DNA of 64,000 nt, taken from Vicinamibacteria bacterium (GTDB taxonomy: Bacteria > Acidobacteriota > Vicinamibacteria > Marinacidobacterales > Marinacidobacteraceae). Position 1 is the first letter of the stretch; each line of letters begins with the position of its first letter. A model generated the notes under the pieces. That model saw only the letters and a program-made list of their open reading frames with translations, did not search any database and was not told where the DNA came from. Positions 1-45,803 of this stretch are shown one piece after another. The translations under genes and the position numbers were made by a program. Where the stretch lies: the NCBI GenBank assembly GCA_965116805.1, contig OZ220713.1:2041853-2105852 (forward strand). The letters run 5' to 3'.

Positions 1-274
1 GAATGATTCCCTGCTCGCGGGCGAGCCGTTTCTTGACCAGCTTGAACATTTCCCGGTACTCGACGCCCCCCGTGCGGATCTCCTCGCCGTAACCGTCGAG
101 GAGCTTCCGGACCTCTTCGTTGAGGTCGTCTTCCTGGCGCAGATCCTCGGTGATGAGATCCACGATGGAATCCATCAGCGCGTTCGGGTCCTCCGGATCG
201 ATGTAGCCGGCAACCTGCAGGTCGTCGGTGATCCGGTACCCGAGGAACTGGATCTGGCTCTTGGTGAGGCGCAT
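1..274 (-). CDS. DUF507-family hypothetical protein (C-terminal part lies outside the window; start ATG at 272-274 on the complement)
   Basis: Reverse-strand translation reads MRLTKSQIQFLGYRITDDLQVAGYIDPEDPNALMDSIVDLITEDLRQEDDLNEEVRKLLDGYGEEIRTGGVEYREMFKLVKKRL... and stays open to the window edge. The pattern is DUF507-like. It is absent from the ORF track because it is truncated. Confidence 0.6.
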   Translation of the reverse strand, partial: MRLTKSQIQFLGYRITDDLQVAGYIDPEDPNALMDSIVDLITEDLRQEDDLNEEVRKLLDGYGEEIRTGGVEYREMFKLVKKRLAREQGII

Positions 275-409
275 GGCAGGCAACCGAAAAGGCTAACACA
301 GCGGGGGTATTCGCAGCCACCGCGAACCGGACCCGCCGGAATGCCGTGTCTTCGGTTCCTGTAATTCGGTGCGGCAAGACTGCTAGAATTCGCGGTCCTG
401 GCGAGAGAT

Positions 410-487
410 GGGGTCGTAGTTCAGTTGGTCCAGAACGCCGGCCTGTCACGCCGGAGGTCGCGGGTTCGAGTCCCGTCGGCCCCGCCA
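410..487 (+). tRNA. tRNA-Asp (anticodon GTC), CCA encoded
   Basis: Cloverleaf is readable. The 7-bp acceptor stem GGGGTCG pairs with CGGCCCC. D-arm is AGTTCAGTTGGTCCAGAAC. The anticodon stem CCGGC/GCCGG carries loop CUGUCAC with anticodon GUC. T-arm is GCGGGTTCGAGTCCCGT. Discriminator G, then CCA at 485-487. Confidence 0.9.
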
Positions 488-538
488 TCATCGCTTTTCC
501 CGCAGACGCGTTCCGGCGCCCCTTCCGTGAGGCATCTC

Positions 539-766
539 ATGAAGATCACGATTACCTACTGCGTCGTTTGAAACTACCTTCCGAACGCCTCCAGTCTGGC
601 GGCGGCAATCCGGGAGGCCCGGGGCATCGAACCCGAGCTCATCGAAGGCGGCAAGGGCATCTTCGACGTCGCGGTGGACAGCGAACTCGTCTACTCCAAG
701 TACGACACCGGCCGGTTCCCCGAGAACGACGAGATCCTCGACAAGATTCCCGTCCTCGCGAGCTGA
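539..766 (+). CDS. SelW/SelT/Rdx-family selenoprotein, 75 aa, with an in-frame TGA (569-571) read as selenocysteine in a C-x-x-U redox motif
   Basis: ATG at 539 gives MKITITYCVV-U(TGA)-NYLPNASSLAAAIREARGIEPELIEGGKGIFDVAVDSELVYSKYDTGRFPENDEILDKIPVLAS*. The N-terminal beta-strand plus CxxU, the GG motif and the 'FEV..DG.LV(Y/F)SK..TGRFP' core are the signature of Rdx/SelW proteins. The frame is continuous across the TGA to the TGA stop at 764-766. The ORF track misses it because of the internal TGA. Confidence 0.75.
586..624 (+). promoter_or_regulatory. Candidate bacterial SECIS-like stem-loop about 15 nt downstream of the Sec-UGA
   Basis: GCCTCC (587-592) can pair with GGAGGC (613-618), enclosing a roughly 20-nt GC-rich loop directly 3' of the in-frame TGA. 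Position is right for a bacterial SECIS. The structure was not computationally folded. Confidence 0.3.
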
Positions 767-808
767 GGTTAGTCCGGCCGAGAACGGCCGGTTTCGAGCG
801 CGCCTCGA

Positions 809-11566: not shown

Positions 11567-12808
11567 CTACCGGTCGCGGACGTCGTAGGCGACCAGCACG
11601 TCCTGGTCGCGCAGGTAGAGGAGGCCGTTCGCGACCACCGGATGGCTCCAGGTGTTCTCTCCCGAGCGGTCCCGCTGGCGCAGTTCGAAGCGGCCGTGTT
11701 GCCGGTAGCCGGCGCGCGAAGGTTCCACCAGGGCGACGTCGCCGCGTTCGCTGAACACGTAGAGCCGGTTGTCCGCGAAGGTGAGGGAGCCCTTCCGGAT
11801 CGAGCGGTCGCGCCAGAAGAGCGCCCCGGTCTCGATGTCGACGGCGCTGAAGATGGACCCCGAGAACCCGTAGAGGACGCCCTCGTGGAGCACGGGCGTC
11901 ATGTGGTGGGCCCGCATGTTCCGGGTGAAGTACTTCTCGCTGGCGGTGACTCCGCCGGCGCTGTCGGCCTGCAGCTCGAGCAGGGCGCCCCCCGTGCCGT
12001 AGTCCGAGGACAGGAAGACCTCCGCGGTGCCCCCGCGGTTCGAGACCAGGACCGGCGTCGCGATGTTGGCCGTCCGGTTCGAGGCGCGGCGGTAGCTCCA
12101 GAGCAGGGCGCCGTCGTCCGCGCGGATGCCCGCGGCGCGCTCGCCGCTGAAATAGACGATGTGCGGCGCGCCCGCGAGATCCACCGGCAGCGGTGAGGAG
12201 TAGCCCGCCTCGTCGCCGGCGGTCCCCCAGAGGAGTTCGCCGGACTCCCGGTCGAAGGCGGCGAACCCGACCTGCCGGCTGCCGGGCGAGACCAGCACCC
12301 GGTCACCCAGCACGAGCGGCGATTCGCTGATGCCCCAACTGATGTTCCTCCCCCGGAAGCGCTCGAGGAGGTTGAGGGTCCAGAGGACCTGCCCGCTGGC
12401 GGCGTCGAGGGCGGTGAGCTGCCCCCGGGCGCCGAGGGCGTACACCGTCCCGTCCACCACCGTCGGGACGCCGCGGGGGCCGTCCCCCCGGCCGTCCCGA
12501 TAGGCGTCGGCGTGCGGCGTCGCCCAGAGCTGGGCGCCGGTGGCGGCGTCCAGCGTGACGATCCACTCCCGGCCGGAGAACATGCCCTGGGTGTGGATGC
12601 GGCCGTCGGCCACCGCCACCGTCGAGTAGCCGGCGCCGAGGCCGTCGGCCCGGAAGACGAGCGGCGGGCCGCCGTCGGGCCAGCTCTGCCGGAGACCCGT
12701 TTCGAGGGAGATGCCGTCCCGGTTCGGTCCCCGCCACTGCGGCCAGTCGTCGCCGGCGGTGGCGGGAAGGGGAAGGAGGAGCAGGGCGGCGAGGGCGGCG
12801 AACCTCAT
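11567..12808 (-). CDS. PQQ-like beta-propeller repeat protein (BamB-like), secreted
   Basis: Signal peptide MRFAALAALLLLPLPATAG. Repeated 'G.V(Y/L)A.D..(T/S)G..LW' PQQ/WD-like blades. Confidence 0.85.
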   Translation of the reverse strand: MRFAALAALLLLPLPATAGDDWPQWRGPNRDGISLETGLRQSWPDGGPPLVFRADGLGAGYSTVAVADGRIHTQGMFSGREWIVTLDAATGAQLWATPHADAYRDGRGDGPRGVPTVVDGTVYALGARGQLTALDAASGQVLWTLNLLERFRGRNISWGISESPLVLGDRVLVSPGSRQVGFAAFDRESGELLWGTAGDEAGYSSPLPVDLAGAPHIVYFSGERAAGIRADDGALLWSYRRASNRTANIATPVLVSNRGGTAEVFLSSDYGTGGALLELQADSAGGVTASEKYFTRNMRAHHMTPVLHEGVLYGFSGSIFSAVDIETGALFWRDRSIRKGSLTFADNRLYVFSERGDVALVEPSRAGYRQHGRFELRQRDRSGENTWSHPVVANGLLYLRDQDVLVAYDVRDR

Positions 12809-13779
12809 TCGGAACCCTCCCGGCTGCTCGCCACCGGCAACGCGGCTTCCCGAAGCGCTTCGAGATAGTCCTGGAGGCGCCGGCCTGCATCGCCCGGCTC
12901 AAGATCGCCCGGCGCGACGCTGTCGGGTCCGGGGATCTCGGCCATGAAGGCGTAAACGAGTGCCCGGCCGGCAGGTTCCCCGGGGGCCGCGTAGTACCCC
13001 GAGAGCACGCGGGTGATGGGGCTCGAGTTGAGCGAGCCCCCCTTGTAGAAGTGGCGGCCGTCCTCCGTGTCCTCGAGGAAGAGGATGTCCCGCATCGCGG
13101 CGTGAGTCTGGGGCGAGATCCCGGGGACGTCGCCCCGGGCGACGGCGGCGAGGACCGCGGTGAGCGAGCCGGCCGTCGCGGTGTTGTCCCCGGTCACGTC
13201 CCGCGCGGCGAGCATGTAGCGGCGCGAGTCGATGCCGGAGAAATCCGGGTGGCGGGCCTGGATCCTGTCGGTGAGTTCGGGTGGCCCCCCGAGGAACGCG
13301 GTCACCAGGTTCGCCGCCGCGTTGTAGACCGGGTTCGAGACCCCGGTCCCCCGGATCATGTGGCGCCCCACCGTCCGCGCGGTGGCGGTTTCCAGGTGTT
13401 CCCGGATCTCCGCCTGGGTGTCCGCGTCGAAGTGGACGATGGCGGGATGTTCCGGATCGCCGACGACGTCCACCGCACCCGGGACGGGCTCGTCGAGCGC
13501 GTCGGCGCGGTCCGAGAAGAACTCGACCAGGTAGGCCGTCTTGATGGAGCTCGCCGCGGGGCGGGGGACGTCGGCGGACTCCGTGTAGAGCGCCTCGCCG
13601 TCCGCCGTCCCGATCCAGATGCTCCGGCCGAGGCCGGTGAACGCCGCGGCGTCCACGCCGTCGAGAGCGGCGGCGACCGCCTCGCGTCCATCGAGCGGGG
13701 CAGGGGCCGGAGCGGCCCCGTTGCAACCGGCCGCGAGGGCAACAAATGCCGCTAAGGTGTTCCGAAGGAGGATCCGCAT
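12805..13779 (-). CDS. Serine hydrolase, class A beta-lactamase-like lipoprotein
   Basis: Trimmed to MRILLRNTLAAFVALAAGC (lipobox). S-x-x-K motif SSIKTAYL, KGG box. Stop overlaps the downstream PQQ gene start (ATGA). The upstream Arg-rich 105 codons in the track ORF are judged non-coding. Confidence 0.7.
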   Translation of the reverse strand: MRILLRNTLAAFVALAAGCNGAAPAPAPLDGREAVAAALDGVDAAAFTGLGRSIWIGTADGEALYTESADVPRPAASSIKTAYLVEFFSDRADALDEPVPGAVDVVGDPEHPAIVHFDADTQAEIREHLETATARTVGRHMIRGTGVSNPVYNAAANLVTAFLGGPPELTDRIQARHPDFSGIDSRRYMLAARDVTGDNTATAGSLTAVLAAVARGDVPGISPQTHAAMRDILFLEDTEDGRHFYKGGSLNSSPITRVLSGYYAAPGEPAGRALVYAFMAEIPGPDSVAPGDLEPGDAGRRLQDYLEALREAALPVASSREGSE

Positions 13780-13816
13780 GGACGCGGTGAGCATATTCCG
13801 TGTTGATTGAACCGTC

Positions 13817-14629
13817 ATGTGGGTAACCCGGCCGCTCGCGCGGGGCTTCGACCCGGCCCGGATCAGGGACCCGGAACGTTCGGGAGCGGTGGACTGGGCG
13901 CTCTTCAACGCCAACTTCGAGCGGTTCCTGAACACCCCCTGGTGGCGCGTCAACCAGGGACATCGCGGCCCCGCGTGGCTCCGCGCTCTCCGTCTCGGCA
14001 TCGCGTACGCGCAGCAGCGGCGCGACGCGATCCACGACTTCACAGGCAAGGCGGCGGCGCTTTCCCGCCTGCGCGTCCCGCCCGACCCCAGCATCGTGTT
14101 CTTCGGCGCCGAGGCGGGCTGGGAGGCGGCGATCCTCCAGGCGCTCTTCGGAGCCGGCGGCGAAGTCGTCCTGATCGACGAGGACCCCGCGGCCCACGAC
14201 CGCTTCCGCCACGCGCCGCTCGCCGTTCGCGTCCGGGCGCCCCGCGGTTCGGCCCGCCACGAACTCCTCGTGAAGCGCGACCCCGACCGCTGGCGCTACC
14301 TCCGCCAGAACTTCTTCGACGTGCCCCCCGAGCCCCGTTTCGACGTCGGCATCGACTGGGGCCTCATCGAGCACTTCCCCGACCCCGGCAAGGCCAGGCT
14401 CATCGCCCACTTCCGGCGGTTCCTGAAACCCGGAGCCCTCCAGATCTCCAGCACCCCCCGGGACCGCTTCGCCGTCCGCCTCTTCTACCGCGCCTTCGCC
14501 GACGAACTCAACACCGGCTACCGCGAACTCATGACACTCCCCGAGCTAACGGACCGCATCGAGTCGGCAGGCGGCACAATCGAAACCCAACTCACCCTCC
14601 CCGCCCACAACATCGTCGCCTACCGATAA
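13817..14629 (+). CDS. Class I SAM-dependent methyltransferase-like protein
   Basis: Rossmann motif I ...SIVFFGAEAGWEAA..., acidic strand VVLIDEDP, post-II ...IEHFPDPGKARLIAHFRRFLKPGALQIS.... Confidence 0.6.
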   Translation: MWVTRPLARGFDPARIRDPERSGAVDWALFNANFERFLNTPWWRVNQGHRGPAWLRALRLGIAYAQQRRDAIHDFTGKAAALSRLRVPPDPSIVFFGAEAGWEAAILQALFGAGGEVVLIDEDPAAHDRFRHAPLAVRVRAPRGSARHELLVKRDPDRWRYLRQNFFDVPPEPRFDVGIDWGLIEHFPDPGKARLIAHFRRFLKPGALQISSTPRDRFAVRLFYRAFADELNTGYRELMTLPELTDRIESAGGTIETQLTLPAHNIVAYR

Positions 14630-15040
14630 CGCTCGGAGCGCCGGCCTCCGGCCGGCATCGACCGCCCCCAGGCGGTCGAAACCGCACCCCGCCTCCCGCC
14701 CTCTCCGCAGCAACGGCTGGGACCGCCGGTCTTCAGACCGGCAGCGGCCCGCAGGGCCGCAAAGCGCGCGGCCCCGATCCGCGTGGATGACGCGTACGGC
14801 TTGGAACGCCGGCTTCAGCCGGCACGCGGCCCGCAGGGCCGCAGAGCGCGCGGCGCTGATCCGCGCTGATGGCGCGTACGGCTTGGAACGCCGGCTTCAG
14901 CCGGCACGCGGCCCACAGGGCCGCAGAGCGCGCGGCGTTGATCGCGGGGAGAACACGCACGGCTGGGAGCGCCGGTCTTCAGACCGGCACGCGCGGCGCC
15001 CCCCCACCGGGAGAACTGGCGCGCCGCGCGCTTCGTACGC
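14630..15040. repeat. Cluster of REP/BIME-like palindromic units, including two about 80-bp tandem copies
   Basis: GTACGGCTTGGAACGCCGGCTTCAGCCGGCACGCGGCC(C/A)CAGGGCCGCAGAGCGCGCGGCG occurs twice in tandem at 14797-14960. Also GCCGGTCTTCAGACCGGCAC and CGCGGCGCCCCCCCACCGGGAGAACTGGCGCGCCGCG hairpins. The same units are found at 5.35-6.0 kb, 28.6 kb, 33.4-33.8 kb and 37.2 kb. Confidence 0.8.
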
Positions 15041-15044
15041 GGAA

Positions 15045-16147
15045 GCTCCGGTCAATAGCGACGAGGCTCCGGTCGATATCGAGGGCCTCGGGCTCCCAGC
15101 TCCAGTCGATAACTTCGGAGGTCCGGTCGATATCGGGCGTCTCGGATTCCCAGCTCCGGTCGATAACGCCGGGGGTCCGGTCGATATCGGATGTCTCGGA
15201 TTCCGAGCTCCGGTCGATATCGAGGATCGGTGGCGGAGTTGGCAATAGGATGAGGGCGCGATGATGCGCCACCTGACCGCAATCGTCGAACGGGAGGCCG
15301 ACGGATACGTCGCCCTGTGCCCGGAAGTAGATGTCGCGAGCCAGGGAGACACCGTTGCCGAGGCACGCGCGAACCTGAAGGAAGCGCTGACCCTATTCTT
15401 CGAGACGGCCCCCGCAGAGGAAATCGACCGGCGACGTGTCTCGGGATTCCAGCTCCGGTCGATAACTGTGGGGGTCCGGTCGATATCGGGGGTCTCGGAT
15501 TCCCAGCTCCGGTCGATAACGTCGGGGGTCCGGTCGATATGCGGTGTCTCGGATCTCAACTCCGGTCGATATCGAGGGTTGGCGGCGACAGGTCCGGTCG
15601 ATATCGATGGAGCTCCGGTCGATAACGCCAGCCGGCCAGTCGAGCTCCGGTCGATAACGCGCAGCTCCGGTCGATATCCGGGGTCGGCGGGCTGGAAGCT
15701 CCGGTCGATAACGTGGAGCTCCGGTCGATATCCGGGGTCGGCGGGCTGGAAGCTCCGGTCGATAACGTGGAGCTCCGGTCGATATCCGGGGTCGGCGGGC
15801 TGGAAGCTCCGGTCGATAACGTGGAGCTCCGGTCGATATCGGAGGCCGGCGGGCTGGAGGCTCCGGTCGATAACGTGGAGCTCCGGTCGATATCCGGGGT
15901 CGGCGGTTGGAAGCTCCGGTCGATAAACGTGGAGCTCCGGTCGATATCGGAGGCCGGCGGGTGGAGGCTCCGGTCGATAACGTGGAGCTCCGGTCGATAT
16001 CGGAGGCTGGCGGGTGGAGGCTCCGGTCGATAACGCGGTGTAGGAGACGCCCGTAGAGTCGGAGTTGGGAGACACCAACTTTTGCGCACGGGGGAGGCGA
16101 GGCTCCGGTCGATAGCGATGGTCAGCGAAGGGAGCTCCGGTCGATAA
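15045..16147. repeat. Tandem array of about 31 copies of a 16-bp motif GCTCCGGTCGATA(A/T)CG alternating the ATAACG and ATATCG variants, in two clusters (15045-15221 and 15452-16147). Includes a 54-bp higher-order repeat of about 6 copies at 15699-16030.
   Basis: Directly visible: ...gctccggtcgataacgtggagctccggtcgatatccggggtcggcgggctggaa... repeated with period 54. Copies are spaced 20-33 bp apart. The core contains the palindrome CGATATCG. One isolated copy sits at 17079-17095. Confidence 0.9.
15261..15926 (+). CDS. HicB-like (UPF0150) antitoxin-domain protein. The N-terminal roughly 58 aa form a genuine domain. The rest of the ORF is read-through of the tandem array.
   Basis: MMRHLTAIVEREADGYVALCPEVDVASQGDTVAEARANLKEALTLFFETAPAEEIDRR matches the HicB/UPF0150 N-terminal fold. 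From residue about 60 the frame is translated repeat (QLRSITVGVRSISGVSD...). No HicA partner adjacent. The true C-terminus is unknown. Confidence 0.4.
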   Translation: MMRHLTAIVEREADGYVALCPEVDVASQGDTVAEARANLKEALTLFFETAPAEEIDRRRVSGFQLRSITVGVRSISGVSDSQLRSITSGVRSICGVSDLNSGRYRGLAATGPVDIDGAPVDNASRPVELRSITRSSGRYPGSAGWKLRSITWSSGRYPGSAGWKLRSITWSSGRYPGSAGWKLRSITWSSGRYRRPAGWRLRSITWSSGRYPGSAVGSSGR

Positions 16148-16148
16148 C

Positions 16149-16931
16149 ATGAGACTCGTGACTCTTCGTCGAGCGGCGCTTGGCGCCGTGCTGGCGCTCA
16201 TGGCGGTCGTGGTGACGCTCGCCGTGATCCGGCGGTCGGCCACTCCGCCAGCGCCCACGACTTCGGCAGACGAGGCGCTTGCCCTGGAGTCACCGTCCTA
16301 CGGCACGCGTGAACCAGCGGTGGACGCTGCCGAGCCGGAAACCGAGGTCCCCGATGAAGTCCTGGCCGTTCAAACGCCACCGGACAGCAGTCCGGCGGGA
16401 CTCCTGGTGGCAGCCGCCGGGGCGGGCGACGCCGCGCGCGTTCGGGAACTCCTCGCTGCCGGAGTGCCGCCGGATTCCGAGAGTCAGGGAACGTTCGCCA
16501 TTCACCGCGCCGCGGTCGCTGGTTCGGTCGCGGTACTCCAGGTTCTCGTGGAGGCCGGAGCGCACCTCGAAGCGCTCAACCAGTACGGGCAGACGGCCCT
16601 GACCCAGGCTGCGTTCTACGGCAATGCGGAAGCGGTGGTGTTCCTGCTGAGCGCGGGCGCCGACCCGAACGCCCACGCCGAACCGAACCATCAGACACCC
16701 CTGAGGGCGATCCTGAGCGGCTGGACAATGACTCTCTCGAGTCGCTCGCGGCTCCCGCCGAAGGACGAGGAACGCTTCGCGGCGGCCTGGGCGCTCATTC
16801 AGGCGGGGGCCGATCCACACTTCGGTCCCGGAGACCATCCACCGCCAGTGGTGATGGCGGAAGCCCTCGGCGGCGAAGTCGGGCGGCTCTTCGCCCAGGA
16901 TCCGACCGATCCCGGGCAGCGCCCGCGCTGA
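16149..16931 (+). CDS. Ankyrin-repeat protein with N-terminal signal/TM anchor
   Basis: MRLVTLRRAALGAVLALMAVVVTLAV...; repeated ANK units (..TPLHRAA..G....VLVEAGA..). The ATG sits immediately after the last array copy (...gctccggtcgataacATG). Confidence 0.8.
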   Translation: MRLVTLRRAALGAVLALMAVVVTLAVIRRSATPPAPTTSADEALALESPSYGTREPAVDAAEPETEVPDEVLAVQTPPDSSPAGLLVAAAGAGDAARVRELLAAGVPPDSESQGTFAIHRAAVAGSVAVLQVLVEAGAHLEALNQYGQTALTQAAFYGNAEAVVFLLSAGADPNAHAEPNHQTPLRAILSGWTMTLSSRSRLPPKDEERFAAAWALIQAGADPHFGPGDHPPPVVMAEALGGEVGRLFAQDPTDPGQRPR

Positions 16932-17163
16932 ACGGGCAGGTGCCCCAGGGCCCGGGTTCGGCGCTGTCCGGTCCCCCGCTCCGGACTAGAGCGAGCCGAG
17001 CGTGGCCCAGGGGTCTCCGCGCAGCGTCCTGAGCCCGGCGATCGCCGAAGCGAGGAGCATCAGTCGACAGCGACGGAGGCTCCCGTCGATATCGGATTCG
17101 AAGTCCTGTTCGGCCGCGCCGTAGGACCGACGTCAAACCGAAGCGGCGATGGGCGCGGTTGAT

Positions 17164-17436
17164 CTATTTCGGCACGTGGTGCCGCCGATATGCCTGACTC
17201 CGGTGGAGGACGGCTTCGATGGCCACGGAGCCAGTCTGCGGATCATGTCGGTAGATCACGCGCCAATCCCCGACCCGGAGCCGCGCCATGTTGCCCGGCC
17301 CCTTCAGTCTCTTCACATCGCCCTGATCTTGCTCGACATAACGGTCGATCGCCTCAACTACCCGAATGCGAGCCGGCCGATCAAGCCGCTTCAGGTCGCG
17401 AAGCGCGCGATTCGTATAGGACGCGCGTTCGGTCAG
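17164..17436 (-). CDS. RelE/ParE-family type II toxin lacking a canonical start codon (possible pseudogene, or CTG start overlapping the antitoxin stop)
   Basis: Reverse frame gives LTERASYTNRALRDLKRLDRPARIRVVEAIDRYVEQDQGDVKRLKGPGNMARLRVGDWRVIYRHDPQTGSVAIEAVLHRSQAYRRHHVPK*, a classic RelE/ParE core. The in-frame upstream stretch back to a TGA contains no ATG/GTG/TTG. Confidence 0.5.
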   Translation of the reverse strand: MTERASYTNRALRDLKRLDRPARIRVVEAIDRYVEQDQGDVKRLKGPGNMARLRVGDWRVIYRHDPQTGSVAIEAVLHRSQAYRRHHVPK

Positions 17437-17687
17437 ATGCCTAGTTCTCGCTTCACCTCGGCCGAGGTGTGAGTCCGTCCGGCCATGCGATCCGCGCGGG
17501 CCTCTTCAATCGCTCGCAGCGCCTCACCGCTCAACTCGTCCTCATCGAGTGGCAGCGTCGCCACCGGCCTGCGTCCGAGACGGGGTTGCCTAGCCAAGGA
17601 TTCAAGCACCCTCGTGGCGAGGGGGGTCTGCGTATCCGGGAGTCGATCCACCAAGTCGTGGAGCCTGGCCCTGGCTGCCCCTTTCAT
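17433..17687 (-). CDS. Type II antitoxin (RelB/ParD-like or addiction-module component) paired with the RelE/ParE toxin
   Basis: 84 aa, ...LPLDEDELSGEALRAIEEARADRMAGRTHTSAEVKRELGI*, acidic C-terminal region typical of antitoxins. Its stop overlaps the toxin's first codons. Confidence 0.6.
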   Translation of the reverse strand: MKGAARARLHDLVDRLPDTQTPLATRVLESLARQPRLGRRPVATLPLDEDELSGEALRAIEEARADRMAGRTHTSAEVKRELGI

Positions 17688-17800
17688 GAGCCGAATCTAG
17701 CACATGGATCACGGCTGAACCCGATGGTCCGGCACGGAAGAGAGGGCCCGGTGCTTCCACGATGGGCCGCCTGGGTTGAGACCGGTCTGCCTGACGGCGA

Positions 17801-18619
17801 TCACGTCCCCCCACGCGAAGCCCAGGGCTCCGGCGCCCACAGTCTCCAGCGAGTGATGAGCCGGGGGCACTCCAGCGCCGCATCCAGCTGTGTATTCCCA
17901 GCGGTGAGGCGCTGGCGGCAGGATTCCAACAGTTCCGGGCCTGACGGATCGCGTTCGGCGAGAAAGCCCAGCCGCTTGAAGACCGCACCGTTGCCGAGCC
18001 GGACGGCGTAGCGGATCAGGAGGTCGTCGTCGCGGCGGTCCGACTTGAGGTAGACCGACAGACAGTCGGCCACGTGCTGGATTCCGCCTCCGAGTTCCGG
18101 ATCGGCGAGCATGTCCAGGATGGTCCGGTGCATGTCCGCCACCGCGACCCGGGTTCTGCCACGCCAGACGCTGGCGGTCCCGAAGATCTTTCCCGGGCGG
18201 ACGTGGGTGACGCTGAACTCGGCGCCGTGGCAACGCCGGCTCTTCTGCCGCACGGTCTGCGCCGTCATGACCACGATGTCACGGAAGATCTGTTCGGTCA
18301 GATCCCAGTGCTCGGCGGCCGTGCGGCCACCGATGTAGGCCGGATCAAAGAGCGGCGGCACCAGGATCCACGGATCGTCCAGCACACGGATGCTGCCGAG
18401 CGTGGTGAGTGAGGCAGGGAGGTAGACGCCGCGGGCTGCGCGCCGCAGCCATGCCTGTTTCACCCAGCGCGAGAGCAACTTCGCAGCCTCGGCGCGCGAC
18501 ACCTCGAGGGCGTTCACGACATCCTCTATCCGCACGACGTCCCCGGCTTCGTTGAGGACGGCGCTGAGGCGACGGCGCGATTCCGGAACGACGGGATCCG
18601 ATGTGGTGGTGGTTCTCAT
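17801..18619 (-). CDS. AbiEi-like (COG5340) antitoxin/transcriptional-regulator domain protein
   Basis: N-terminal wHTH ...DVVRIEDVVNALEVSRAEAAKLLSRWVKQAWLRRAARGVYLP.. followed by AbiEi_4-like ...FDPAYIGGRTAAEHWDLTEQIF....VTHVRPGKIFG.... No cognate AbiEii nucleotidyltransferase downstream. Confidence 0.6.
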   Translation of the reverse strand: MRTTTTSDPVVPESRRRLSAVLNEAGDVVRIEDVVNALEVSRAEAAKLLSRWVKQAWLRRAARGVYLPASLTTLGSIRVLDDPWILVPPLFDPAYIGGRTAAEHWDLTEQIFRDIVVMTAQTVRQKSRRCHGAEFSVTHVRPGKIFGTASVWRGRTRVAVADMHRTILDMLADPELGGGIQHVADCLSVYLKSDRRDDDLLIRYAVRLGNGAVFKRLGFLAERDPSGPELLESCRQRLTAGNTQLDAALECPRLITRWRLWAPEPWASRGGT

Positions 18620-19172
18620 GGTCGGCGAATCACGGAGGCTACGTCCTGGCGTGGCGGTGGCGTCTGCGTCTACTCGTGACTTCAGTTGTCCGGAACTACA
18701 TTACATTGTCATTTGATCGCACTAGTCGGGAAATTCAGACATCTCCATATATCCCAAGTCAATCCTGTCCAACTCGACACACCGTTGATCTCTCCCGCAA
18801 TCCGACCGGTCACCGCGACCCGGTCATTCCCGGATCAAACGCAAAACCTGTGGTTGGTCAGCGGTTTGTGGGGTTGTGTGCTCTCTCTAATATCGCTTTC
18901 CAGTCAAATAGATAAACCACGTTTTAACAATGACTTAGCGTGCTTTGTGCTCCAGGCGAGCGTTTCCGGTCAAGTAAACGCGGGTCGTCGGCTCGGAGTT
19001 CGGACGGGAGCAGCCGGCACCCGGCGGCCGCACCGCCGCCGGATCTGGAGCGCGAGCTCGCTCAGGCCGAGACTCAGTGCGATTCGGACTGATTCACTTC
19101 AGGACTGGAGGGCGGCAAGAGTCGCCACCAGGACGAATCCGGCAGGAACCCCCTGAAACAATACGCCGCCGC

Positions 19173-21992
19173 ATGCGCCTCTCCTGGAACGAGATCCGCG
19201 CCCGCGCCGGGTCCTTCGCCCGCAAGTGGGCGGACGCCGGATACGAGAAAGGCGAGACCCAGAGCTTCTACAACGACTTCTTCCGCATCTTCGGGGTGCG
19301 CCGGGAGTCGGTGGCCCGCTACGAGGAGCGGGTGGAGAAGCTCGACGACACCAGCGGGTTCATCGACCTCTTCTGGCCGGGAGTCCTGATCGTCGAACAG
19401 AAGAGCGCCGGGCGCAACCTGTCCGCTGCATACGAGCAGGCGGGAGGCTACTTCGACGCGCTGACGGAGACCGAGCGGCCTCGCTACATCCTGGTCAGCG
19501 ACTTCCAGCACTTCGAACTCCACGACCTGCTCCAGCGGGACGAGGTGTCCTTCCGGCTCGACCAGTTGCCGGAACACGTCGAGAAGTTCGGCTTCATCCT
19601 GGGTGTCGCCAGCCGCACCTTCCGGGACCAGGACCCGGCGAACATCGAGGCCGCCGAACTGGTCGGGAAGCTCCACGATTCGCTCCGGGACGCCGGCTAT
19701 CCGGCCCACGACCTCGAACGCTTCCTCGTCCGGATCGTCTTCTGCCTGTTCGCCGACGACACCGGAGTCTTCGAGCCCCGGGACATCCTGCTCGACTTCC
19801 TGGAGACGCGGACCCGCGAGGACGGTACGGACCTCGGACCACTGCTCGCCCAACTCTTCCAGGTGCTGGACACCCCCGAAGACCAGCGAATCGCAACTCT
19901 GGACGAGGATCTGGCCCGCTTTCCGTACATCGACGGCGAACTCTTCGCCGCCACCATCCGGATTCCAGCGTTCACCGCGGAGATGCGGGAGCACCTGCTG
20001 ACCGCCTGCCGGTTCAACTGGTCAACGATCTCCCCGGCGATCTTCGGGTCGCTTTTCCAGTCGGTGATGGACCCGGTGGAGCGTCGGGCGCAGGGGGCGC
20101 ACTACACCACCGAGCAGAACATCCTCAAGGTCATCGAGCCGCTCTTCCTCGACGATCTGTGGGAGGAGTTCACCCGGATCAGAGCCCTCCGCCGCGATCG
20201 GCTTCGGCGGCTGCGCGAGTTCCAGGAGAAGCTCGGCAGGCTCACTTTCTTCGATCCGGCGTGCGGCTGCGGCAACTTCCTGGTGATCGCGTATCGCGAG
20301 CTTCGGCGGCTGGAAGTCGAAGTACTCCGCGAGCTCCTGGGGAGGGAGGAACAGCAGGTCCTCCAGTTTGACGTGAGTTCGCTCTCCCGGCTCGACGTAG
20401 ACCAGTTCTACGGGATCGAGATCGGGGAGTTCCCGGCCCGGATCGCCGAGGTGGCTCTCTGGATGATGGACCACCTGATGAACAACGAGCTCAGCCTTGA
20501 GTTCGGTCAGTCCTACGCCCGCATCCCCCTGAAGCGCTCGCCGCACATCCACTGCGGGGATGCGCTGGAGATGGACTGGGAGGATCTGCTGCCGGCGAAG
20601 GAGTGTTCGTTCGTCTTCGGGAATCCCCCGTTCGGAGGCGCCAAGTTCCAGTCACCGGCGCAGCGGGCGCAGGTCCGGCGGATCGCCGCGCTCGGGGGCT
20701 CCGGCGGCACACTCGACTACGTGACCGCGTGGTTCATCACAGCGGGTGGATATATCCAGAAGAGCGGCCCGCCGGGCGAGCGGGCAAGGATCGGCTTCGT
20801 GGCGACGAACTCGATCACCCAGGGGGAGCAGGTGGCGCAGCTCTGGCCGATCCTGTTCGGCCGGTGCGGGCTTGAGATTGCCTTTGCCCACCGGACGTTC
20901 GCGTGGGGTTCGGACGCGCGGGGCATGGCGCATGTACACGTCGTCATCGTCGGGTTTGACGACCGGGCGGGGATTCCGGCGACGCGGCGGCTGTTTTCGT
21001 ACGACGACGTGAAGGGGAATCCGCATGAGAGTGGCCACGCGGTCTTGTCACCGTATCTGTTCGATGGCGGGGGACTGGCCGATCCGCATCTCGTGGTGCG
21101 GGAGGAGAGCCGGCCGATCAACGGGATGTCACAGTTGGTGACGGGCACCCAGCCGCTGGAAGACGGTCATCTCACTTTCTCGACCGAAGAGAGAGCGGTC
21201 TTTCTGTCTCGAGAGCCGGCCGCCGCGTCAATTCTCCGTCCGTTCCCGGGAGCACGTGAGTTCATTCGGCGTCAGACTCGGTGGATCCTTCACACCGGCA
21301 ACCTTGAGCCACAGGAACTCCGTGCTTTACCGCTCGTGCGCGAGCGACTGAGATTGGTGCGCGAGTTCCGCTCGAAGAGCAAGCGCACTACGACGCGGAA
21401 ACTGGCGGACTACCCGAGCATGTACGGTGTCACCGTGGTTCCGAACTCACCGTTCCTCGTGGTGCCTCAGGTGAGTTCAGAGCGGCGCGAATACGTGCCA
21501 ATCGGTTGGTTGGAACCTCCGACAATCCCGAGCGAAAAGCTGCGACTCCTTCTCGATGCGTCTCTTGCCGACTTCGCTCTCCTGACATCAGCAATGCATA
21601 TGGCATGGATGCGCGCGGTCACGGGCCGATTGGAGAGCCGTTACATGTATTCTGTGGGAGTGGTCTACAACACCTTCCCGCTACCTCCGAAGGACGCGGA
21701 TCTGGGTCCCCTCGACCCGCTCGCCCAAGCTGTCCTCGATGCCCGCGCCGCTCATCCCAACGCCACTCTCGCGGATCTCTACGACCCGGACCTCATGCCG
21801 GTGGACCTCCGCCGTGCCCACGAGGCACTCGACCGCGCCGTGGACCGTCTCTACCGGCCCCGCAAGTTTGCCTCCGAGCGGGAACGCGTCGAGCACCTCT
21901 TCACGCTCTACGAGCGGATGCGCACGCCGCTGGCCGCCACCACCACGAAGAAGCGCAAACGCCGTCGGACTAGCCGCCTATCCGCCATTTGA
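19173..21992 (+). CDS. MmeI-family type IIL (IIG) restriction-modification enzyme: single-chain endonuclease + N6-adenine methyltransferase + TRD (939 aa)
   Basis: MRLSWNEIRARAG... aligns by eye along its length with MmeI as I remember it (not database-checked). PD-ExK nuclease IDLFWPGVLIVEQKS; MTase motif I FFDPACGCGNFLVIAYRELRRLEVEVLRELL; motif IV FVFGNPPFGG; downstream ...ATNSITQGEQVAQLWP... and ...SERREYVPIGW.... The first Met of the track ORF (19077) is rejected in favour of Met33 (19173). Confidence 0.85.
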   Translation: MRLSWNEIRARAGSFARKWADAGYEKGETQSFYNDFFRIFGVRRESVARYEERVEKLDDTSGFIDLFWPGVLIVEQKSAGRNLSAAYEQAGGYFDALTETERPRYILVSDFQHFELHDLLQRDEVSFRLDQLPEHVEKFGFILGVASRTFRDQDPANIEAAELVGKLHDSLRDAGYPAHDLERFLVRIVFCLFADDTGVFEPRDILLDFLETRTREDGTDLGPLLAQLFQVLDTPEDQRIATLDEDLARFPYIDGELFAATIRIPAFTAEMREHLLTACRFNWSTISPAIFGSLFQSVMDPVERRAQGAHYTTEQNILKVIEPLFLDDLWEEFTRIRALRRDRLRRLREFQEKLGRLTFFDPACGCGNFLVIAYRELRRLEVEVLRELLGREEQQVLQFDVSSLSRLDVDQFYGIEIGEFPARIAEVALWMMDHLMNNELSLEFGQSYARIPLKRSPHIHCGDALEMDWEDLLPAKECSFVFGNPPFGGAKFQSPAQRAQVRRIAALGGSGGTLDYVTAWFITAGGYIQKSGPPGERARIGFVATNSITQGEQVAQLWPILFGRCGLEIAFAHRTFAWGSDARGMAHVHVVIVGFDDRAGIPATRRLFSYDDVKGNPHESGHAVLSPYLFDGGGLADPHLVVREESRPINGMSQLVTGTQPLEDGHLTFSTEERAVFLSREPAAASILRPFPGAREFIRRQTRWILHTGNLEPQELRALPLVRERLRLVREFRSKSKRTTTRKLADYPSMYGVTVVPNSPFLVVPQVSSERREYVPIGWLEPPTIPSEKLRLLLDASLADFALLTSAMHMAWMRAVTGRLESRYMYSVGVVYNTFPLPPKDADLGPLDPLAQAVLDARAAHPNATLADLYDPDLMPVDLRRAHEALDRAVDRLYRPRKFASERERVEHLFTLYERMRTPLAATTTKKRKRRRTSRLSAI

Positions 21993-22170
21993 GAACCTAG
22001 GTGGGTCGCAGCGGGCTCGCCCACCCGGACTTCCGTGTGGGTTGTCTCTGAGTGAAGGAGCGGCCGGCCTGTCTGGGGCTAAGGTTTTCCGGGACGAGCC
22101 CACAAGCCGGCATACTCAACGCCCCGGCGACACCTTGTGAATACGCCAGGAATGAGCGGGGAGACCTAGC

Positions 22171-23262
22171 GTGACGGACATCATTGAGCCGGCACAGAGT
22201 GAACTGATGGTGTACCGCCCCCTCTCGCAAATGGTGCAGCTGTTCGTGCTGCCAGAGATTGATAGACGCGTCGATTCCGGCGCGATCCCAGAAGTCGATC
22301 TGCCGCTGCAGCTGCTTCAGTTCAGGGTCGTCGAGCCCGGACCCAGGCATACCGTTGAACTCAATGACGAGGTTCAGCTCACGTTTCGTGTCAAGGCGAA
22401 GAAGGCCGTCAAAGCCGGGGAGCCCGTCCACCTCGACGAGATTGACGCTGCCTCCACCGTGCTACTGCCGCCCATCGTGGATGGGACGCCTAGGTCGTTC
22501 TTTCTCCTCCTATCGGCGTTCCTAAACCTGCAGACGGCGTTTGACTTTACCCAGGGCGGACCTGGTCCCATCGGACCACCAATGCTGTTTCCGGCTGCCC
22601 AGTTGGTCCAGATGCAGCGATTTCTTGAGACGGTACAGCCAGTGGAGAAGTTCAGGGAGTTGGCACGGCTCAACTGGCCACCGGCACCGGGGTACTTCCC
22701 TAGTGTCATCGCGCATGCGCATGAGAATCCCGACGATCTGAAGAGGCCGCAGTTCGCGGCCAAGGTTGCAGATACGTACGATGCGGACTTCTGGCAGCAA
22801 CAGCTGGATCTCTGGGGGCAGACCAAACTCTTTCCAGGCCGGTCGCAGTACATCCGTAAAGCCGTCGACGAGTATTGCGAAGACGACTGGATAAGCTCCA
22901 TTTGCGTCATCGTCCCTCAGTTTGAGGGCATCATCTCGGACTACCTACGGACTGTCGGTGAGGAGCCGAAATCCAGGTTCAAAGAAATGGTGTCTCAGCT
23001 CCGGACGCTTGTGTTTTCGCGGAAAGTATTGCTATTCCCGTCGCCTGTCCTTGAGTTGATTCTCGGATTCCTCGAAACGGGAACATTCTGGCAGAACGCG
23101 GATAGCATCGACGATCCGAAACAACAGATCAACCGGCATGGAATTGTCCACGGAGTATTCACCGGTTTTGAGACAAGGGACGTAGCTCTAAAGTACCTGG
23201 TACTCGTCGATGCGCTCGCGCTGCTGATTTTGCACGACAGGATTGTGACCGGCACTCTCTAG
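22171..23262 (+). CDS. Hypothetical protein (363 aa), low-GC, no recognisable family. C-terminal R-x4-H (RHGIVH) could be a HEPN-like motif.
   Basis: GTG start with RBS. Clean 1.09 kb ORF in a roughly 52% GC segment. Convergent with the 4-TM gene. Confidence 0.7.
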   Translation: MTDIIEPAQSELMVYRPLSQMVQLFVLPEIDRRVDSGAIPEVDLPLQLLQFRVVEPGPRHTVELNDEVQLTFRVKAKKAVKAGEPVHLDEIDAASTVLLPPIVDGTPRSFFLLLSAFLNLQTAFDFTQGGPGPIGPPMLFPAAQLVQMQRFLETVQPVEKFRELARLNWPPAPGYFPSVIAHAHENPDDLKRPQFAAKVADTYDADFWQQQLDLWGQTKLFPGRSQYIRKAVDEYCEDDWISSICVIVPQFEGIISDYLRTVGEEPKSRFKEMVSQLRTLVFSRKVLLFPSPVLELILGFLETGTFWQNADSIDDPKQQINRHGIVHGVFTGFETRDVALKYLVLVDALALLILHDRIVTGTL

Positions 23263-23327
23263 CCGCATGGCTCCAGAGACCGAAGTCGGTCGCAGTCCGC
23301 CATGTGCAAGAGCGTTGGTGCACGTCG

Positions 23328-24194
23328 TCAGTCGCGATCTTCCGTCCTCGATAGCGTGTCATTCCAAACGCGCTGCAACGGTTCCTCGTAATAGCGCTTA
23401 AGGCTGTCCGGGATAAGTGGTCCTTCCTTACGTGCCCACTGATAGCCTGAGACGGCAAGAATCACGTCAAGATTGGACACACTGCCGACTCGATCCAGGA
23501 GCTCTGTGAGCCTCTTCATTGATTCCTCCGCCGCCACGCTCAACCGATGGTACTTCGTCCCTAGATTCACAGCGTCCAGAAGGACAAGTAGAGAAATGGC
23601 CAAGCCATAACTGCGCCGGAGGATTCCTGAGGCACCCATAGTTGCTCGCTCGTCCTGTACTTCCAGTCCCCCTAGCGTTATAGCTGAGACGGAAACCACT
23701 AGCGCGGCCCCCGTCACGATGAAGACAATCAGCGATGCCTTCTTGGCTAGCTGCTCGGTCCACCAGGCGGACTCGCGTTCCATTCTGATGAGCAGAGAAT
23801 GTGAGGGCTCGCCCGACGCTTCATAGTAATCGTCGTAGCTCACAGAGGGACCTTGTCTCGGCAACCTGTTGACATACTTCAACTTCACTCTGGCCAACTT
23901 CGCCGCGTCAATCTTGTACCCGATGCCACGGCTTAGTTCGATAGCCCGAATGGTCCATTCCGCGTCTTCCCGATAGTTTTCTGACCTCCAAACACAGATC
24001 CGCCCGGAGATCGCAAACACGACCGCACCCAGCGGTCCGACCCACCCTTGCCATCCAATCGACCATGCGATCGGAACGGCCACAATAGCCAGATAGCCAA
24101 GACTGACGCCGAAACCCCACAACAGCTTTGCCCGAGAGGACACCCAGGTCCGGAGGTGGTGAAGTTGCTTCAAATCTGGCTCACCAATGCTCAT
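23328..24194 (-). CDS. Four-TM membrane protein (288 aa), candidate membrane-disrupting effector (SLATT/4TM-like)
   Basis: TM pairs LLWGFGVSLGYLAIVAVPIAW / WVGPLGAVVFAISGRICVW and ASLIVFIVTGAALVVSVSAITLGG / LAISLLVLLDAVNLG separated by soluble segments. Low GC. Downstream of the nucleotidyltransferase on the same strand. Confidence 0.7.
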   Translation of the reverse strand: MSIGEPDLKQLHHLRTWVSSRAKLLWGFGVSLGYLAIVAVPIAWSIGWQGWVGPLGAVVFAISGRICVWRSENYREDAEWTIRAIELSRGIGYKIDAAKLARVKLKYVNRLPRQGPSVSYDDYYEASGEPSHSLLIRMERESAWWTEQLAKKASLIVFIVTGAALVVSVSAITLGGLEVQDERATMGASGILRRSYGLAISLLVLLDAVNLGTKYHRLSVAAEESMKRLTELLDRVGSVSNLDVILAVSGYQWARKEGPLIPDSLKRYYEEPLQRVWNDTLSRTEDRD

Positions 24195-24423
24195 GTCAGT
24201 CTAAGTTCGAGGTGTAAAGAAAGGCTGTCGCGCAAATCGTGTCCACTTCAAGCGAGCATGCTCAGAGACCCGGCAATCCTACGACCCGCTATGTTCTCAG
24301 GAACTCCTCGATACGCAAGCGATGCTGGAGAGCAACGGGCCCACGATGCTTCTAGACGGCGTGGTTGCCGACCTCCAGCCGTTGCCCACAGGCTGCTCCA
24401 CTCGCCAGTCACGACACAGCAAT

Positions 24424-24453
24424 CGCGAGGAGTACCCGCGCGAGGAGTACCCG
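24424..24453. repeat. Perfect tandem duplication of a 15-bp unit CGCGAGGAGTACCCG x2 in the spacer between the nucleotidyltransferase and 4-TM genes
   Basis: ...aatCGCGAGGAGTACCCGCGCGAGGAGTACCCGgtgatg... read directly. Confidence 0.9.
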
Positions 24454-24495
24454 GTGATGACTAAATGGTCCGAGAGCCCTCGCCGCCCACCGCGC

Positions 24496-25368
24496 TTATT
24501 TGTAATAGCTCGGGAACTGCCCATCGAACAGTAAGTTCCACCAATAAAAGGCGTCCTTGATTTCCCCGCTGCTCTCCGCCGCCCTCGCCTTCGCGGCCCG
24601 TGAGGCTGCGGTTGCCAGCTTGCTCTTCGCCTCCTTCAGCTGTGCCTCCGTCCTGGATGGTGAGATGTACCCCGATACACCCATGGGATCTTGGATCTTG
24701 GCCAGTCCGATCCGTTGGAGCTCACGGAACACGCGCTCTACGTCAATCGCATACACGATCGACGACTCTCCGGACGCGTACTTGGCCACGCGGAGCTCCA
24801 GATAGAACGACAAGACCGGCACATCGCGGAAACACTTCCAGGCCTTGATGAATCTCACGAGCGGCTTCACCTTGTTCGACAGCGATTGGTCAATGCCCCG
24901 GACGTAACTGTTATGTGCGTCCGGACTCGACTTCATCCAACCCCCATCGCAATCCGGGATCTCGTACACGCGATGGTCACCACTCTTCCCGACGTAATCC
25001 GCCGGCGTCACCTCCGTCGTCTCCTTCTTGTCGGTGCCGAACGGCACAACCACTGCGGGACAGGCCGACCGCACACCCGTGTCGGGGAATCTTTCGGCCA
25101 GTGCGTCGCGTAGCTCCGTTAGCGAAGTCGTCGAGTTCCGCTTTAGCTTGTCCGTTGGGATACTCGCCATGTAGTCAACGTCGCTGTACCCAGAGATCGA
25201 CGTGCCGTTGCCGAACGATCCCGTACGCCAGAAGCGTTTGAGTCCAAATTTGGAGCGGATGCACTGTTCAATCGACTTGCGGTGCCTCGTGGCGGCGGCC
25301 GTTTCGCCACTCGACGGAGTGAGCTTGGTCAGAAAATCTCGGAATCCCTCATCAACTGTCCTAGGCAT
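24496..25368 (-). CDS. cGAS/DncV-like (CD-NTase / SMODS-type) nucleotidyltransferase, 290 aa
   Basis: Pol-beta NTase motif WRTGSFGNGTSISGYSDVDYM (GS...[DE]h[DE]h); third acidic strand VYEIPDCD; followed by the OAS/cGAS-type helix ...LVRFIKAWKCF.... Low GC. Confidence 0.65.
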   Translation of the reverse strand: MPRTVDEGFRDFLTKLTPSSGETAAATRHRKSIEQCIRSKFGLKRFWRTGSFGNGTSISGYSDVDYMASIPTDKLKRNSTTSLTELRDALAERFPDTGVRSACPAVVVPFGTDKKETTEVTPADYVGKSGDHRVYEIPDCDGGWMKSSPDAHNSYVRGIDQSLSNKVKPLVRFIKAWKCFRDVPVLSFYLELRVAKYASGESSIVYAIDVERVFRELQRIGLAKIQDPMGVSGYISPSRTEAQLKEAKSKLATAASRAAKARAAESSGEIKDAFYWWNLLFDGQFPSYYK

Positions 25369-25533
25369 TACATTCTCCCGTGAAGTTCAACGGTCTCGCG
25401 ACGCAAGGCCGGGCCGCAGCTAGTGTTCCCCTTCAGGCCTCGCATCCAAGAGTCGACCTCCAGGGAAGAACGCCTAAGTACGCCCTTTCGCCGTTCGAGG
25501 GCGTCGTAAGGGCTCTGCATCAAGTCGCAATCG

Positions 25534-25562
25534 GAGCGATAGCGGATTTCGCTATCGCTCCG
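25534..25562 (-). terminator. Perfect 12-bp stem hairpin (GGAGCGATAGCG-GATTT-CGCTATCGCTCC) 45 bp downstream of groEL; probable operon terminator (no U-tract)
   Basis: Inverted repeat read directly. It sits between the groEL 3' end and the nucleotidyltransferase start. Confidence 0.4.
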
Positions 25563-25606
25563 CGCCAAAACGAATGATCTGAGGCGTAGCCGGTGGTTAC
25601 CTTGGA

Positions 25607-27268
<1,662 letters not shown>

Positions 27269-27282
27269 TCAGTGGGGGCCGT

Positions 27283-27570
27283 CTACTCGACGATGCCCAG
27301 AATCTCGTCCTCGCGGACGATGATGAAGTCCTCGCCGTCGAGCTTGACCTCGGATCCGGAGTACTTTCCGATCAGCACGGTCTGCCCGGGCTTGACCTCG
27401 GGAGCCTGACGGCCGCCGTCCTTCAGGACCTTGCCGGCGCCCACCTCGACCACTTCGGCGGTCATCGGTTTTTCCTTCGCGGTATCGGGAACGATGATGG
27501 AGCCGATCTTCTCCTCGGCCGCCTCGAGCCGGCGAAGCAGAACGTTCTCCCTCAGAGGCTTGAACTTCAT
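27283..27570 (-). CDS. groS: Co-chaperonin GroES (95 aa)
   Basis: MKFKPLRENVLLRRLEAAEEKIGSIIVPDTAKEKPMTAEVVEVGAGKVLKDG...; 35 bp upstream of groEL. The track ORF is trimmed to this Met. Confidence 0.95.
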   Translation of the reverse strand: MKFKPLRENVLLRRLEAAEEKIGSIIVPDTAKEKPMTAEVVEVGAGKVLKDGGRQAPEVKPGQTVLIGKYSGSEVKLDGEDFIIVREDEILGIVE

Positions 27571-27723
27571 CGGAATGGGTCTCCTCTTTCTGGATGGACG
27601 CCACACGGCGTCCATGACTGGGTTGCGATGCGTCCGGTCGGCCGGGCTTCGGGGCCTCGGGCCGTCCTCGCCGGTCCGCGCGGCGGGCCGGCGGCGCCGG
27701 TCAAGGGCGCCGGACAGCGGGAA

Positions 27724-42636: not shown

Positions 42637-42697
42637 CGCGACAGCGTACCGGCTGACCCTCCCGCGCGAACGTGCCCTCCGCCCGGACGGCGGCCCG

Positions 42698-44413: not shown

Positions 44414-44463
44414 GGCCCTATTCTGGATGCCGTTCGGGCGCCACGGCGCCCGAACCGGCGGGA

Positions 44464-45802: not shown

Positions 45803-45803
45803 C

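Follow-up and report, generated by a model that had tools for sequence, protein, structure and literature searches.

The gene at positions 19173-21992 of a 64-kb stretch of contig OZ220713.1 from a Vicinamibacteria bacterium (hereafter the window, meaning the whole 64,000 nucleotides analysed) very probably encodes an intact, functional-looking, stand-alone restriction-modification (RM) enzyme of the MmeI family, Type IIL/IIG. We put the probability of this reading at roughly 0.9. The 939-residue protein carries a nuclease, an N6-adenine methyltransferase and a DNA-recognition domain on one polypeptide, and its predicted recognition site is 5'-C-N-N-C-(m6)A-C-3'. It is an ordinary addition to a large family whose mechanism, structure and fast specificity evolution are already established.

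Assignment to the MmeI family

In a phmmer search of the PDB, the only solved structure matched was that of MmeI (5HR4), which aligned from its residue 1 to 910 with residues 1-924 of the window enzyme at 47% identity (E 1.2e-268). A first-pass annotation, made by eye from the sequence, had proposed just such a whole-length resemblance, and the search bears it out, as do the five Pfam MmeI domains, all matched in canonical order with E values from 1e-23 to 5e-81, far over their gathering scores. Identity to MmeI is 47, 54, 54, 38 and 41% in the nuclease, helical spacer, methyltransferase, target recognition and C-terminal domains, respectively. The top PADLOC model is the stand-alone Type IIG profile REase_MTase_IIG (PDLC03598), which scores 1128.9 bits and covers residues 2-918 against profile positions 2-909 of 912. 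The protein thus shows the features that mark membership of the family, namely whole-length similarity, a PD-ExK nuclease, methyltransferase motifs I and IV, the shared fold of the target recognition domain (TRD) and the lack of a partner methyltransferase.

The window enzyme has the same five-domain layout as MmeI of Methylophilus methylotrophus, which recognises TCCRAC and cuts at 20/18, and the two are similar in length (939 versus 919 residues). They differ by a five-residue deletion in the nuclease domain and a five-residue insertion where the TRD begins, and the window enzyme closes with KKRKRRR, a short basic tail for which MmeI has no counterpart. In the helical spacer, which sets the distance from site to cut, the sole length difference is a single residue at query position 202; the other small insertions and deletions fall in the nuclease, methyltransferase and TRD regions. 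The spacer length is consistent, if indirectly, with an MmeI-like cutting reach.

The catalytic residues are retained throughout. The segment FIDLFWPGVLIVEQKS at residues 63-78 holds D65, E75 and K77, which in the 196-sequence alignment described below correspond to MmeI D70, E80 and K82, and the equivalents of E25 and E51 are likewise kept. Residues of the D70/E80/K82 type, together with E25 and E51, have been described as invariant in active members, with the triad needed for cleavage (PMC2731913), and the presence of equivalents to D70, E80 and K82 was the criterion by which family members were selected (Morgan et al. 2009, PMC2731913). The gamma-class methyltransferase motif I, FFDPACGCGNFLV, and motif IV, NPPF, are both intact and agree with the family definitions (xxDPACGxGxFL and NPPF/Y, respectively). 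The nuclease triad and both methyltransferase motifs are identical in MmeI. The nuclease motif (D...EQK) and the methyltransferase motifs picked out in the first-pass annotation are therefore present, and proper alignment reveals no substitution of nuclease or methyltransferase catalytic residues. Its estimate of the TRD, residues 620-820, lies close to the Pfam match at 638-838.

The listed open reading frame (ORF) is longer than the gene as we define it, running from a GTG at 19077 to 21992 on the forward strand (971 codons). We discarded this start because MmeI, the gene call in ENA and the homologues all begin at the methionine at 19173. Translation from that ATG gives an N terminus, MRLSWNEIR, that closely resembles MALSWNEIR of MmeI, with the alignment between the two beginning at residue 1; the starts of over 100 close homologues, which are 938-945 residues long, agree with it; and the same 939-residue gene, with an identical start, has been called on ENA contig ERZ25072195:contig_7. 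The coordinates and length given in the first-pass annotation accordingly hold. NCBI and ENA already list the exact protein, encoded on a contig of 3.56 Mb. Translation of the enzyme ORF reveals no frameshift or internal stop, and its GC content at third codon positions (GC3) is 0.82, typical for an expressed gene of the host genome. A scan of the 64-kb window found no homopolymers of seven or more nucleotides, no simple repeats of more than four units and no extra TRD copies, and we rejected phase variation or a shufflon on these grounds.

Proposed mode of action

By homology to MmeI, and following the family literature (PMC2731913, PMC4833311), the TRD would bind an asymmetric 6-bp site and, from the major groove, read its bases. 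The penultimate adenine would be flipped into the methyltransferase pocket and methylated at N6 with S-adenosylmethionine (AdoMet), on the top strand only, and this lone-strand N6-methyladenine (m6A) mark would protect host DNA. Unmethylated DNA would be cut about 20 nt (top) and 18 nt (bottom) downstream by the N-terminal nuclease, in a reaction expected to be AdoMet-dependent and to need two sites for efficient cutting.

Members of the family are not accompanied by a separate DNA methyltransferase gene, and no gene consistently flanks them (Morgan et al. 2009, PMC2731913). When the ORFs between 8.4 and 31.6 kb were scanned with Pfam, PADLOC and NCBIfam, no second DNA methyltransferase gene was found in the roughly 10 kb that flank the window enzyme on each side, as had been noted at first pass; the only other methyltransferase-like match was a weak, sub-threshold one to the small-molecule family Methyltransf_23 at 13817-14629. 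The lack of such a gene nearby is consistent with the one-strand protection predicted by homology.

Predicted recognition site

We mapped the base-contacting residues of the TRD onto MmeI numbering in a MAFFT alignment of 196 sequences, comprising MmeI, the window enzyme and 194 relatives. The MmeI sequence was rebuilt from a printed alignment, and its numbering reproduces every published residue; the residue-to-base code was taken from PMC2731914 and PMC4833311, which we refer to as the code papers. Of the five base pairs that the TRD reads, four (positions 1-4) are contacted by residues unlike those of MmeI, with TQ-RGV-QE-KM replacing YK-AFY-EN-AR at positions 2, 1, 3 and 4, while the Glu/Arg pair at position 6 and the leucine opposite the flipped adenine (L805 in MmeI, L820 here) are shared. 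Because the contacts differ in this way, the predicted site is CNNCAC and not TCCRAC. At positions 1, 4 and 6, the window enzyme shows residue combinations that earlier work had described in the family.

At position 1, MmeI A723, F737 and Y738 correspond to R738, G752 and V753. Arg or Lys at MmeI position 723 has been reported for a C:G pair here (PMC2731914, PMC4833311), and we read C, a less certain assignment weakened by the absence of the 'typical' Glu at 738. At position 4, MmeI A774 and R810 are replaced by K789 and M825. The code papers report Lys774 paired with Met, Val, Ser or Gln for C, and the MmeI variant A774K/R810S recognises TCCCAC, so that C is again the reading. Position 5, opposite the flipped base, pairs MmeI T752/L805 with V767/L820 and is taken as the methylated A. 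At position 6, MmeI E806/R808 correspond to E821/R823, so that the reading is C, unchanged from MmeI; exchanging both residues (E806K/R808D) has been shown experimentally to change C to G at this position of the MmeI site (PMC2731914, PMC4833311).

We left positions 2 and 3 as N. The residues at position 2 are T657 and Q660 (Y642 and K645 in MmeI), and the code papers mention Gln645 only when paired with Lys or Arg642, for G. At position 3, MmeI E751 and N773 are replaced by Q766 and E788. Residue chemistry allows the weak guess of T, or G/T, on the top strand. The family members that read G at position 3 use Lys or Arg with Asp. Circumstantial support comes from 120 distant cluster representatives, where nine of the 12 with Gln in the 751 column also have Lys at 774, which specifies C at position 4; of the characterised enzymes, NlaCI and PlaDI are the ones that combine T at position 3 with C at position 4. 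A site resembling CATCAC is our best guess, and a weak one.

Two positive controls read as published and so support the column mapping. CstMI, encoded on plasmid pTP10, has the published Phe642/Met645 in the expected columns, and its residues FM-AGQ-KD-LR-KD read A-A-G-G-A-G, its published site. The homologue on plasmid pCMU01 of Methylobacterium extorquens CM4, presumed to be MchCM4I, shows Ile642/Lys645, the pair on record for that enzyme. A tblastn search against plasmids returned 262 records, among which only this CM4 homologue was tied to a characterised enzyme; the part of pAQ7 examined held no homologue. Under a maximal-order Markov model of the 64-kb window, none of the 32 words of the forms CNNCAC and CNNCAG is depleted beyond an absolute z score of 2.3, and the candidates are not depleted; avoidance is not expected for this family.

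Novelty of the recognition sequence

The first-pass annotation had argued from the divergence of the TRD to a recognition sequence not yet characterised. The premise stands, in that the TRD is the domain least like MmeI (38% identity against 47-54% in the nuclease, spacer and methyltransferase domains), yet is a standard MmeI_TRD domain (E 9.7e-63), and its contacts differ. The conclusion is not established, because the CNNCAC set contains the sites of the characterised enzymes NlaCI (CATCAC) and BsbI (CAACAC), and because the full 11-residue signature, TQ-RGV-QE-KM-ER, recurs in nine further proteins of the 195 relatives aligned.

The comparison with these enzymes can be taken further at the level of residues. 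For sites ending in C-A-C, the code papers report a pattern of Lys at 774 with a residue other than Arg at 810, plus Glu and Arg at 806 and 808. NlaCI, however, is reported to use Tyr642/Met645 at position 2, where the window enzyme has Thr/Gln. Reading by the same mechanism as NlaCI is not supported, and the same site is still possible. The site of EsaSSI, GACCAC, nearly fits the prediction; this enzyme reads G at position 1 and uses Ile/Lys. No sequence has been published for BsbI. It is tentatively conceivable, though we consider it somewhat doubtful, that the window enzyme and its nine signature-sharing relatives read a site of the CNNCAC form that lies outside the characterised Type II specificities, with Gln766/Glu788 acting as an undescribed position-3 reader (T or G/T), in which case the clade would be a natural combinatorial library able to extend the MmeI code to positions 2 and 3.

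Relatives and evolution of specificity

The family is large. An exhaustive HMMER scan of 1.84 billion cluster representatives at 50% identity returned 12,078 relatives at E ≤1e-3 and 2,347 at E ≤1e-30, and a word-indexed protein search returned at least 8000 matches at E <1e-50. In databases the close relatives carry no label beyond 'class I SAM-dependent DNA methyltransferase'. At least 583 relatives turned up in a scan of species-representative genomes; the best 80 of them are 65-89% identical to the window enzyme and come from metagenome-assembled genomes (MAGs) of about ten phyla (Acidobacteriota, Alpha- and Gammaproteobacteria, Nitrospirales, Chloroflexota, Latescibacterota, Gemmatimonadota, Bacteroidota, Cyanobacteria and others). 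The names of some of these MAGs, such as Ca. Poriferihabitaceae and Ca. Synechococcus spongiarum, point to sponges, and we take the SB06xx and RHO3 bins among the relatives to be sponge-derived as well. The clade is found mostly in MAGs that appear to be sponge-associated, and the host of the window is probably a sponge-associated acidobacterium. Judged by its best match at 89% identity and by shared synteny, this host is probably a Vicinamibacteria relative of OY821641.1. A literature search on MmeI in sponge symbionts brought up one general review only.

Below, numbers beginning with L denote genomic loci and those beginning with P proteins among the relatives. The closest relatives are those of the Vicinamibacteria MAG OY821641.1 (L002, 89% identity, with a TRD 93% identical to that of the window enzyme) and P0002 (88%). 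Each matches the window enzyme at nine of the 11 specificity positions and differs at position 6, where Lys/Asp replaces Glu/Arg. The difference is a natural counterpart of the E806K/R808D change engineered in MmeI, which switches C to G, and the sites of L002 and P0002 are therefore predicted to be CNNCAG.

Specificity also appears to have changed in larger steps. The window gene and its counterparts at the same locus in L002 and L006 do not share their specificity residues, with QE-KM-ER in the window, QE-KM-KD in L002 and a wholly different TRD in L006. The L006 gene (8001-10820) is 91-95% identical to the window enzyme in the nuclease, spacer and methyltransferase domains and only 63% in the TRD, and L006 and P0003 taken together are mosaics of the same kind (91-98% versus 63-65%). 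These patterns indicate replacement of whole TRDs by recombination, besides point changes at contact residues. Across the 195 aligned sequences, we count 58 distinct 11-residue signatures, which draw on a limited repertoire of residue pairs, and the mean column entropy is highest in the TRD (1.15 against 0.62-0.73 in the other domains). This diversity matches the rapid evolution of specificity proposed by Morgan and colleagues, of which it is an illustration and not a new principle.

Some genomes hold two paralogues, namely OY762445.1 (L009 and L027) and OZ246946.1 (L025 and L044). A distant relative of 1151 residues and 22% identity lies at 42491-45946 of plasmid pMAQU01 (L082), where it is annotated only as 'DNA methyltransferase'. 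This protein is probably MaqI (CRTTGAC), since its Thr/Arg at position 4 and Glu/Arg at position 6 match the literature; at 22% identity the alignment columns in the N-terminal part of its TRD are unreliable.

Genomic context

The features discussed here are collected in Table 1. The enzyme gene lies in a stretch of lower GC content (14630-25600, GC 0.55-0.66) between flanks of 0.70-0.75 that hold housekeeping-type genes. In both L002 and L006, the same insertion point, between the PQQ/beta-lactamase-like genes and groEL, holds an AbiEi gene and an MmeI homologue, with AbiEi 91-92% identical to that of the window. The downstream cargo differs; in L002 it consists of a WYL protein and a CD-NTase/HORMA pair. 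Nucleotide homology between the window and L002 stops at 21952, shortly before the end of the basic tail. The locus is a variable defence hotspot.

Table 1. Positions of the enzyme gene, its domains and motifs, and the surrounding features in the window. PQQ, pyrroloquinoline quinone; CBASS, cyclic-oligonucleotide-based antiphage signalling system; CD-NTase, cGAS/DncV-like nucleotidyltransferase; 4TM, four-transmembrane.
Feature	Nucleotides	Residues	Strand	Basis or remark
Left flank: PQQ-repeat and beta-lactamase-like genes	11567-14094			AcrB-type pump also among flanking housekeeping-type genes
Ankyrin-repeat protein within island	16149-16931		+	Pfam Ank_2, 2.8e-13
AbiEii remnant	17870-17784	first 29 codons only	-	tblastn with L002 AbiEii protein
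AbiEi-like gene	17801-18619	272 aa	-	PADLOC, 2e-121
Divergent intergenic region between AbiEi-like gene and enzyme gene, 553 bp; presumed promoter region	18620-19172		.	
Complete coding sequence, predicted MmeI-family Type IIL RM enzyme	19173-21992	939 aa + stop	+	ORF, translation, homology
MmeI_N, PD-(D/E)XK endonuclease domain	19203-19691	11-173	+	Pfam, E 5e-43
Catalytic Asp	19365-19367	D65	+	alignment to MmeI
Catalytic Glu	19395-19397	E75	+	alignment to MmeI
Catalytic Lys	19401-19403	K77	+	alignment to MmeI
MmeI_hel, helical spacer	19707-19946	179-258	+	Pfam, E 1.2e-23, profile 1-75 of 75
MmeI_Mtase, gamma-class N6-adenine methyltransferase	20196-20996	342-608	+	Pfam, E 5.1e-81
Methyltransferase motif I	20247-20285	359-371	+	conserved with MmeI
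Methyltransferase motif IV, NPPF	20622-20633	484-487	+	conserved with MmeI
MmeI_TRD, target recognition domain	21084-21686	638-838	+	Pfam, E 9.7e-63
MmeI_C, C-terminal helical domain	21708-21926	846-918	+	Pfam, E 2e-26
ORF directly downstream of enzyme gene	22171-23262	363 aa	+	
Putative 4TM effector of CBASS-like pair	23328-24194		-	PADLOC only, 5.9e-06
CD-NTase/SMODS cyclase of CBASS-like pair	24496-25368		-	PADLOC, 3.7e-118; NCBIfam CBASS_cyclase_b, 2.3e-33, under cut-off
Right flank: groES-groEL	25607-27615			

The ORF directly downstream of the enzyme gene has no sequence match in Pfam, PADLOC, NCBIfam or the PDB. Its sole related sequence is a weak tblastn match (27% over 122 residues, E 1e-6) that lies downstream of the MmeI homologue of L077, and it may be a further defence gene. 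Eukaryote-like repeat proteins such as ankyrins are typical of sponge symbionts, and the ankyrin-repeat protein in the island fits the proposed sponge habitat.

The divergent intergenic region upstream of the enzyme gene is, from 18886 on, about 87% identical in nucleotide sequence to L002 and is conserved together with the enzyme gene. No sigma-70-like promoter consensus was found in 18620-19172, a consensus that may not suit this phylum, and terminator-like sites are at background level.

Alternative explanations

Several points weigh against the assignment and the predicted site. Enzymatic activity is assumed by homology. A silent inactivating substitution is conceivable, as several natural family members have been inactivated, albeit by stops or frameshifts that are absent here. 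As for the site, the pairs T657/Q660 and Q766/E788 carry no stated base meaning in the portions of the code papers available, and their authors themselves describe the correlations at positions 1 and 2 as noisy, with Ile/Lys standing for A in three enzymes and for C in another (PMC2731914, PMC4833311). An inactive or methylase-only relic, in which substitutions outside the triad would leave at most an orphan one-strand adenine methyltransferase, nevertheless seems very unlikely. NmeAIII, DraRI and ApyPI are indeed disrupted in their sequenced hosts (PMC2731913), and the adjacent AbiE module, in which AbiEii has decayed to 29 codons, tells us that gene loss occurs in this island. The documented inactive members, however, have stops or frameshifts, of which the window ORF has neither; D65/E75/K77, E25, E51 and motifs I and IV are all kept; the codon bias is native-like, with a GC3 of 0.82; and the gene is conserved at 84-89% identity at the same locus in two related genomes. 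It is extremely unlikely that the protein is instead the methyltransferase and recognition subunit of a multi-gene system, such as PglX/BrxX of bacteriophage exclusion (BREX), DrmMI of the defence island system associated with restriction-modification (DISARM), a methylation-associated defence system (MADS) or YeeA-YeeB-YeeC. BREX PglX (BrxX) and YeeA-type proteins have a homologous methyltransferase-TRD-C-terminal module and place m6A on one strand of an asymmetric site, and this kinship accounts for partial PADLOC matches to mad2 (1.9e-40, residues 29-506) and DrmMI (6.4e-24, residues 481-917) and for a trace NCBIfam match to BREX-6 PglX. Those proteins are nuclease-less and act with partner genes, whereas the window enzyme has the N-terminal PD-ExK domain that YeeA-type homologues do not (PMC2731913). 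The stand-alone Type IIG model scores 1128.9 bits against at most 137 bits for the others, BREX-6 PglX reaches only 17.1 bits against a cut-off of 900, and the Pfam, PADLOC and NCBIfam scans found no brxA/B/C, pglZ, brxL, YeeB/YeeC, helicase or DISARM genes among the neighbours.

A further proposal would add to the stand-alone enzyme reading and not replace it, namely that expression of the enzyme is controlled by the AbiEi-like winged helix-turn-helix protein, kept after the loss of AbiEii. AbiEi proteins are autoregulatory DNA-binding repressors. The two divergent neighbours share the 553-bp intergenic region, the pair is conserved in L002 and L006, and in the window AbiEi is intact while AbiEii has been cut to its 29-codon stub. 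Against this, the adjacency is limited to one lineage in which the whole locus is syntenic, and may therefore simply have been inherited; AbiEi lies beside the homologue in none of the other 77 loci examined; L002 keeps a complete AbiEi-AbiEii pair, as would fit a toxin-antitoxin module acting independently (its AbiEii has 433 residues and carries a fused WYL domain); and the absence of any consistent flanking gene in the family (Morgan et al. 2009, PMC2731913) speaks the same way. Such control is unlikely.

Implications

The gene alone leaves the understanding of the MmeI family unchanged. Its value is more practical. For annotation, the gene deserves the label Type IIL RM enzyme in place of the 'class I SAM-dependent DNA methyltransferase' that its relatives carry in the databases. 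For enzyme discovery, it is one more natural member of the family with a partly predictable site, CNNCAC, and, should the bases that it reads at positions 2 and 3 prove new, the code by which these enzymes are engineered would gain one specificity together with one residue pair (Gln/Glu).

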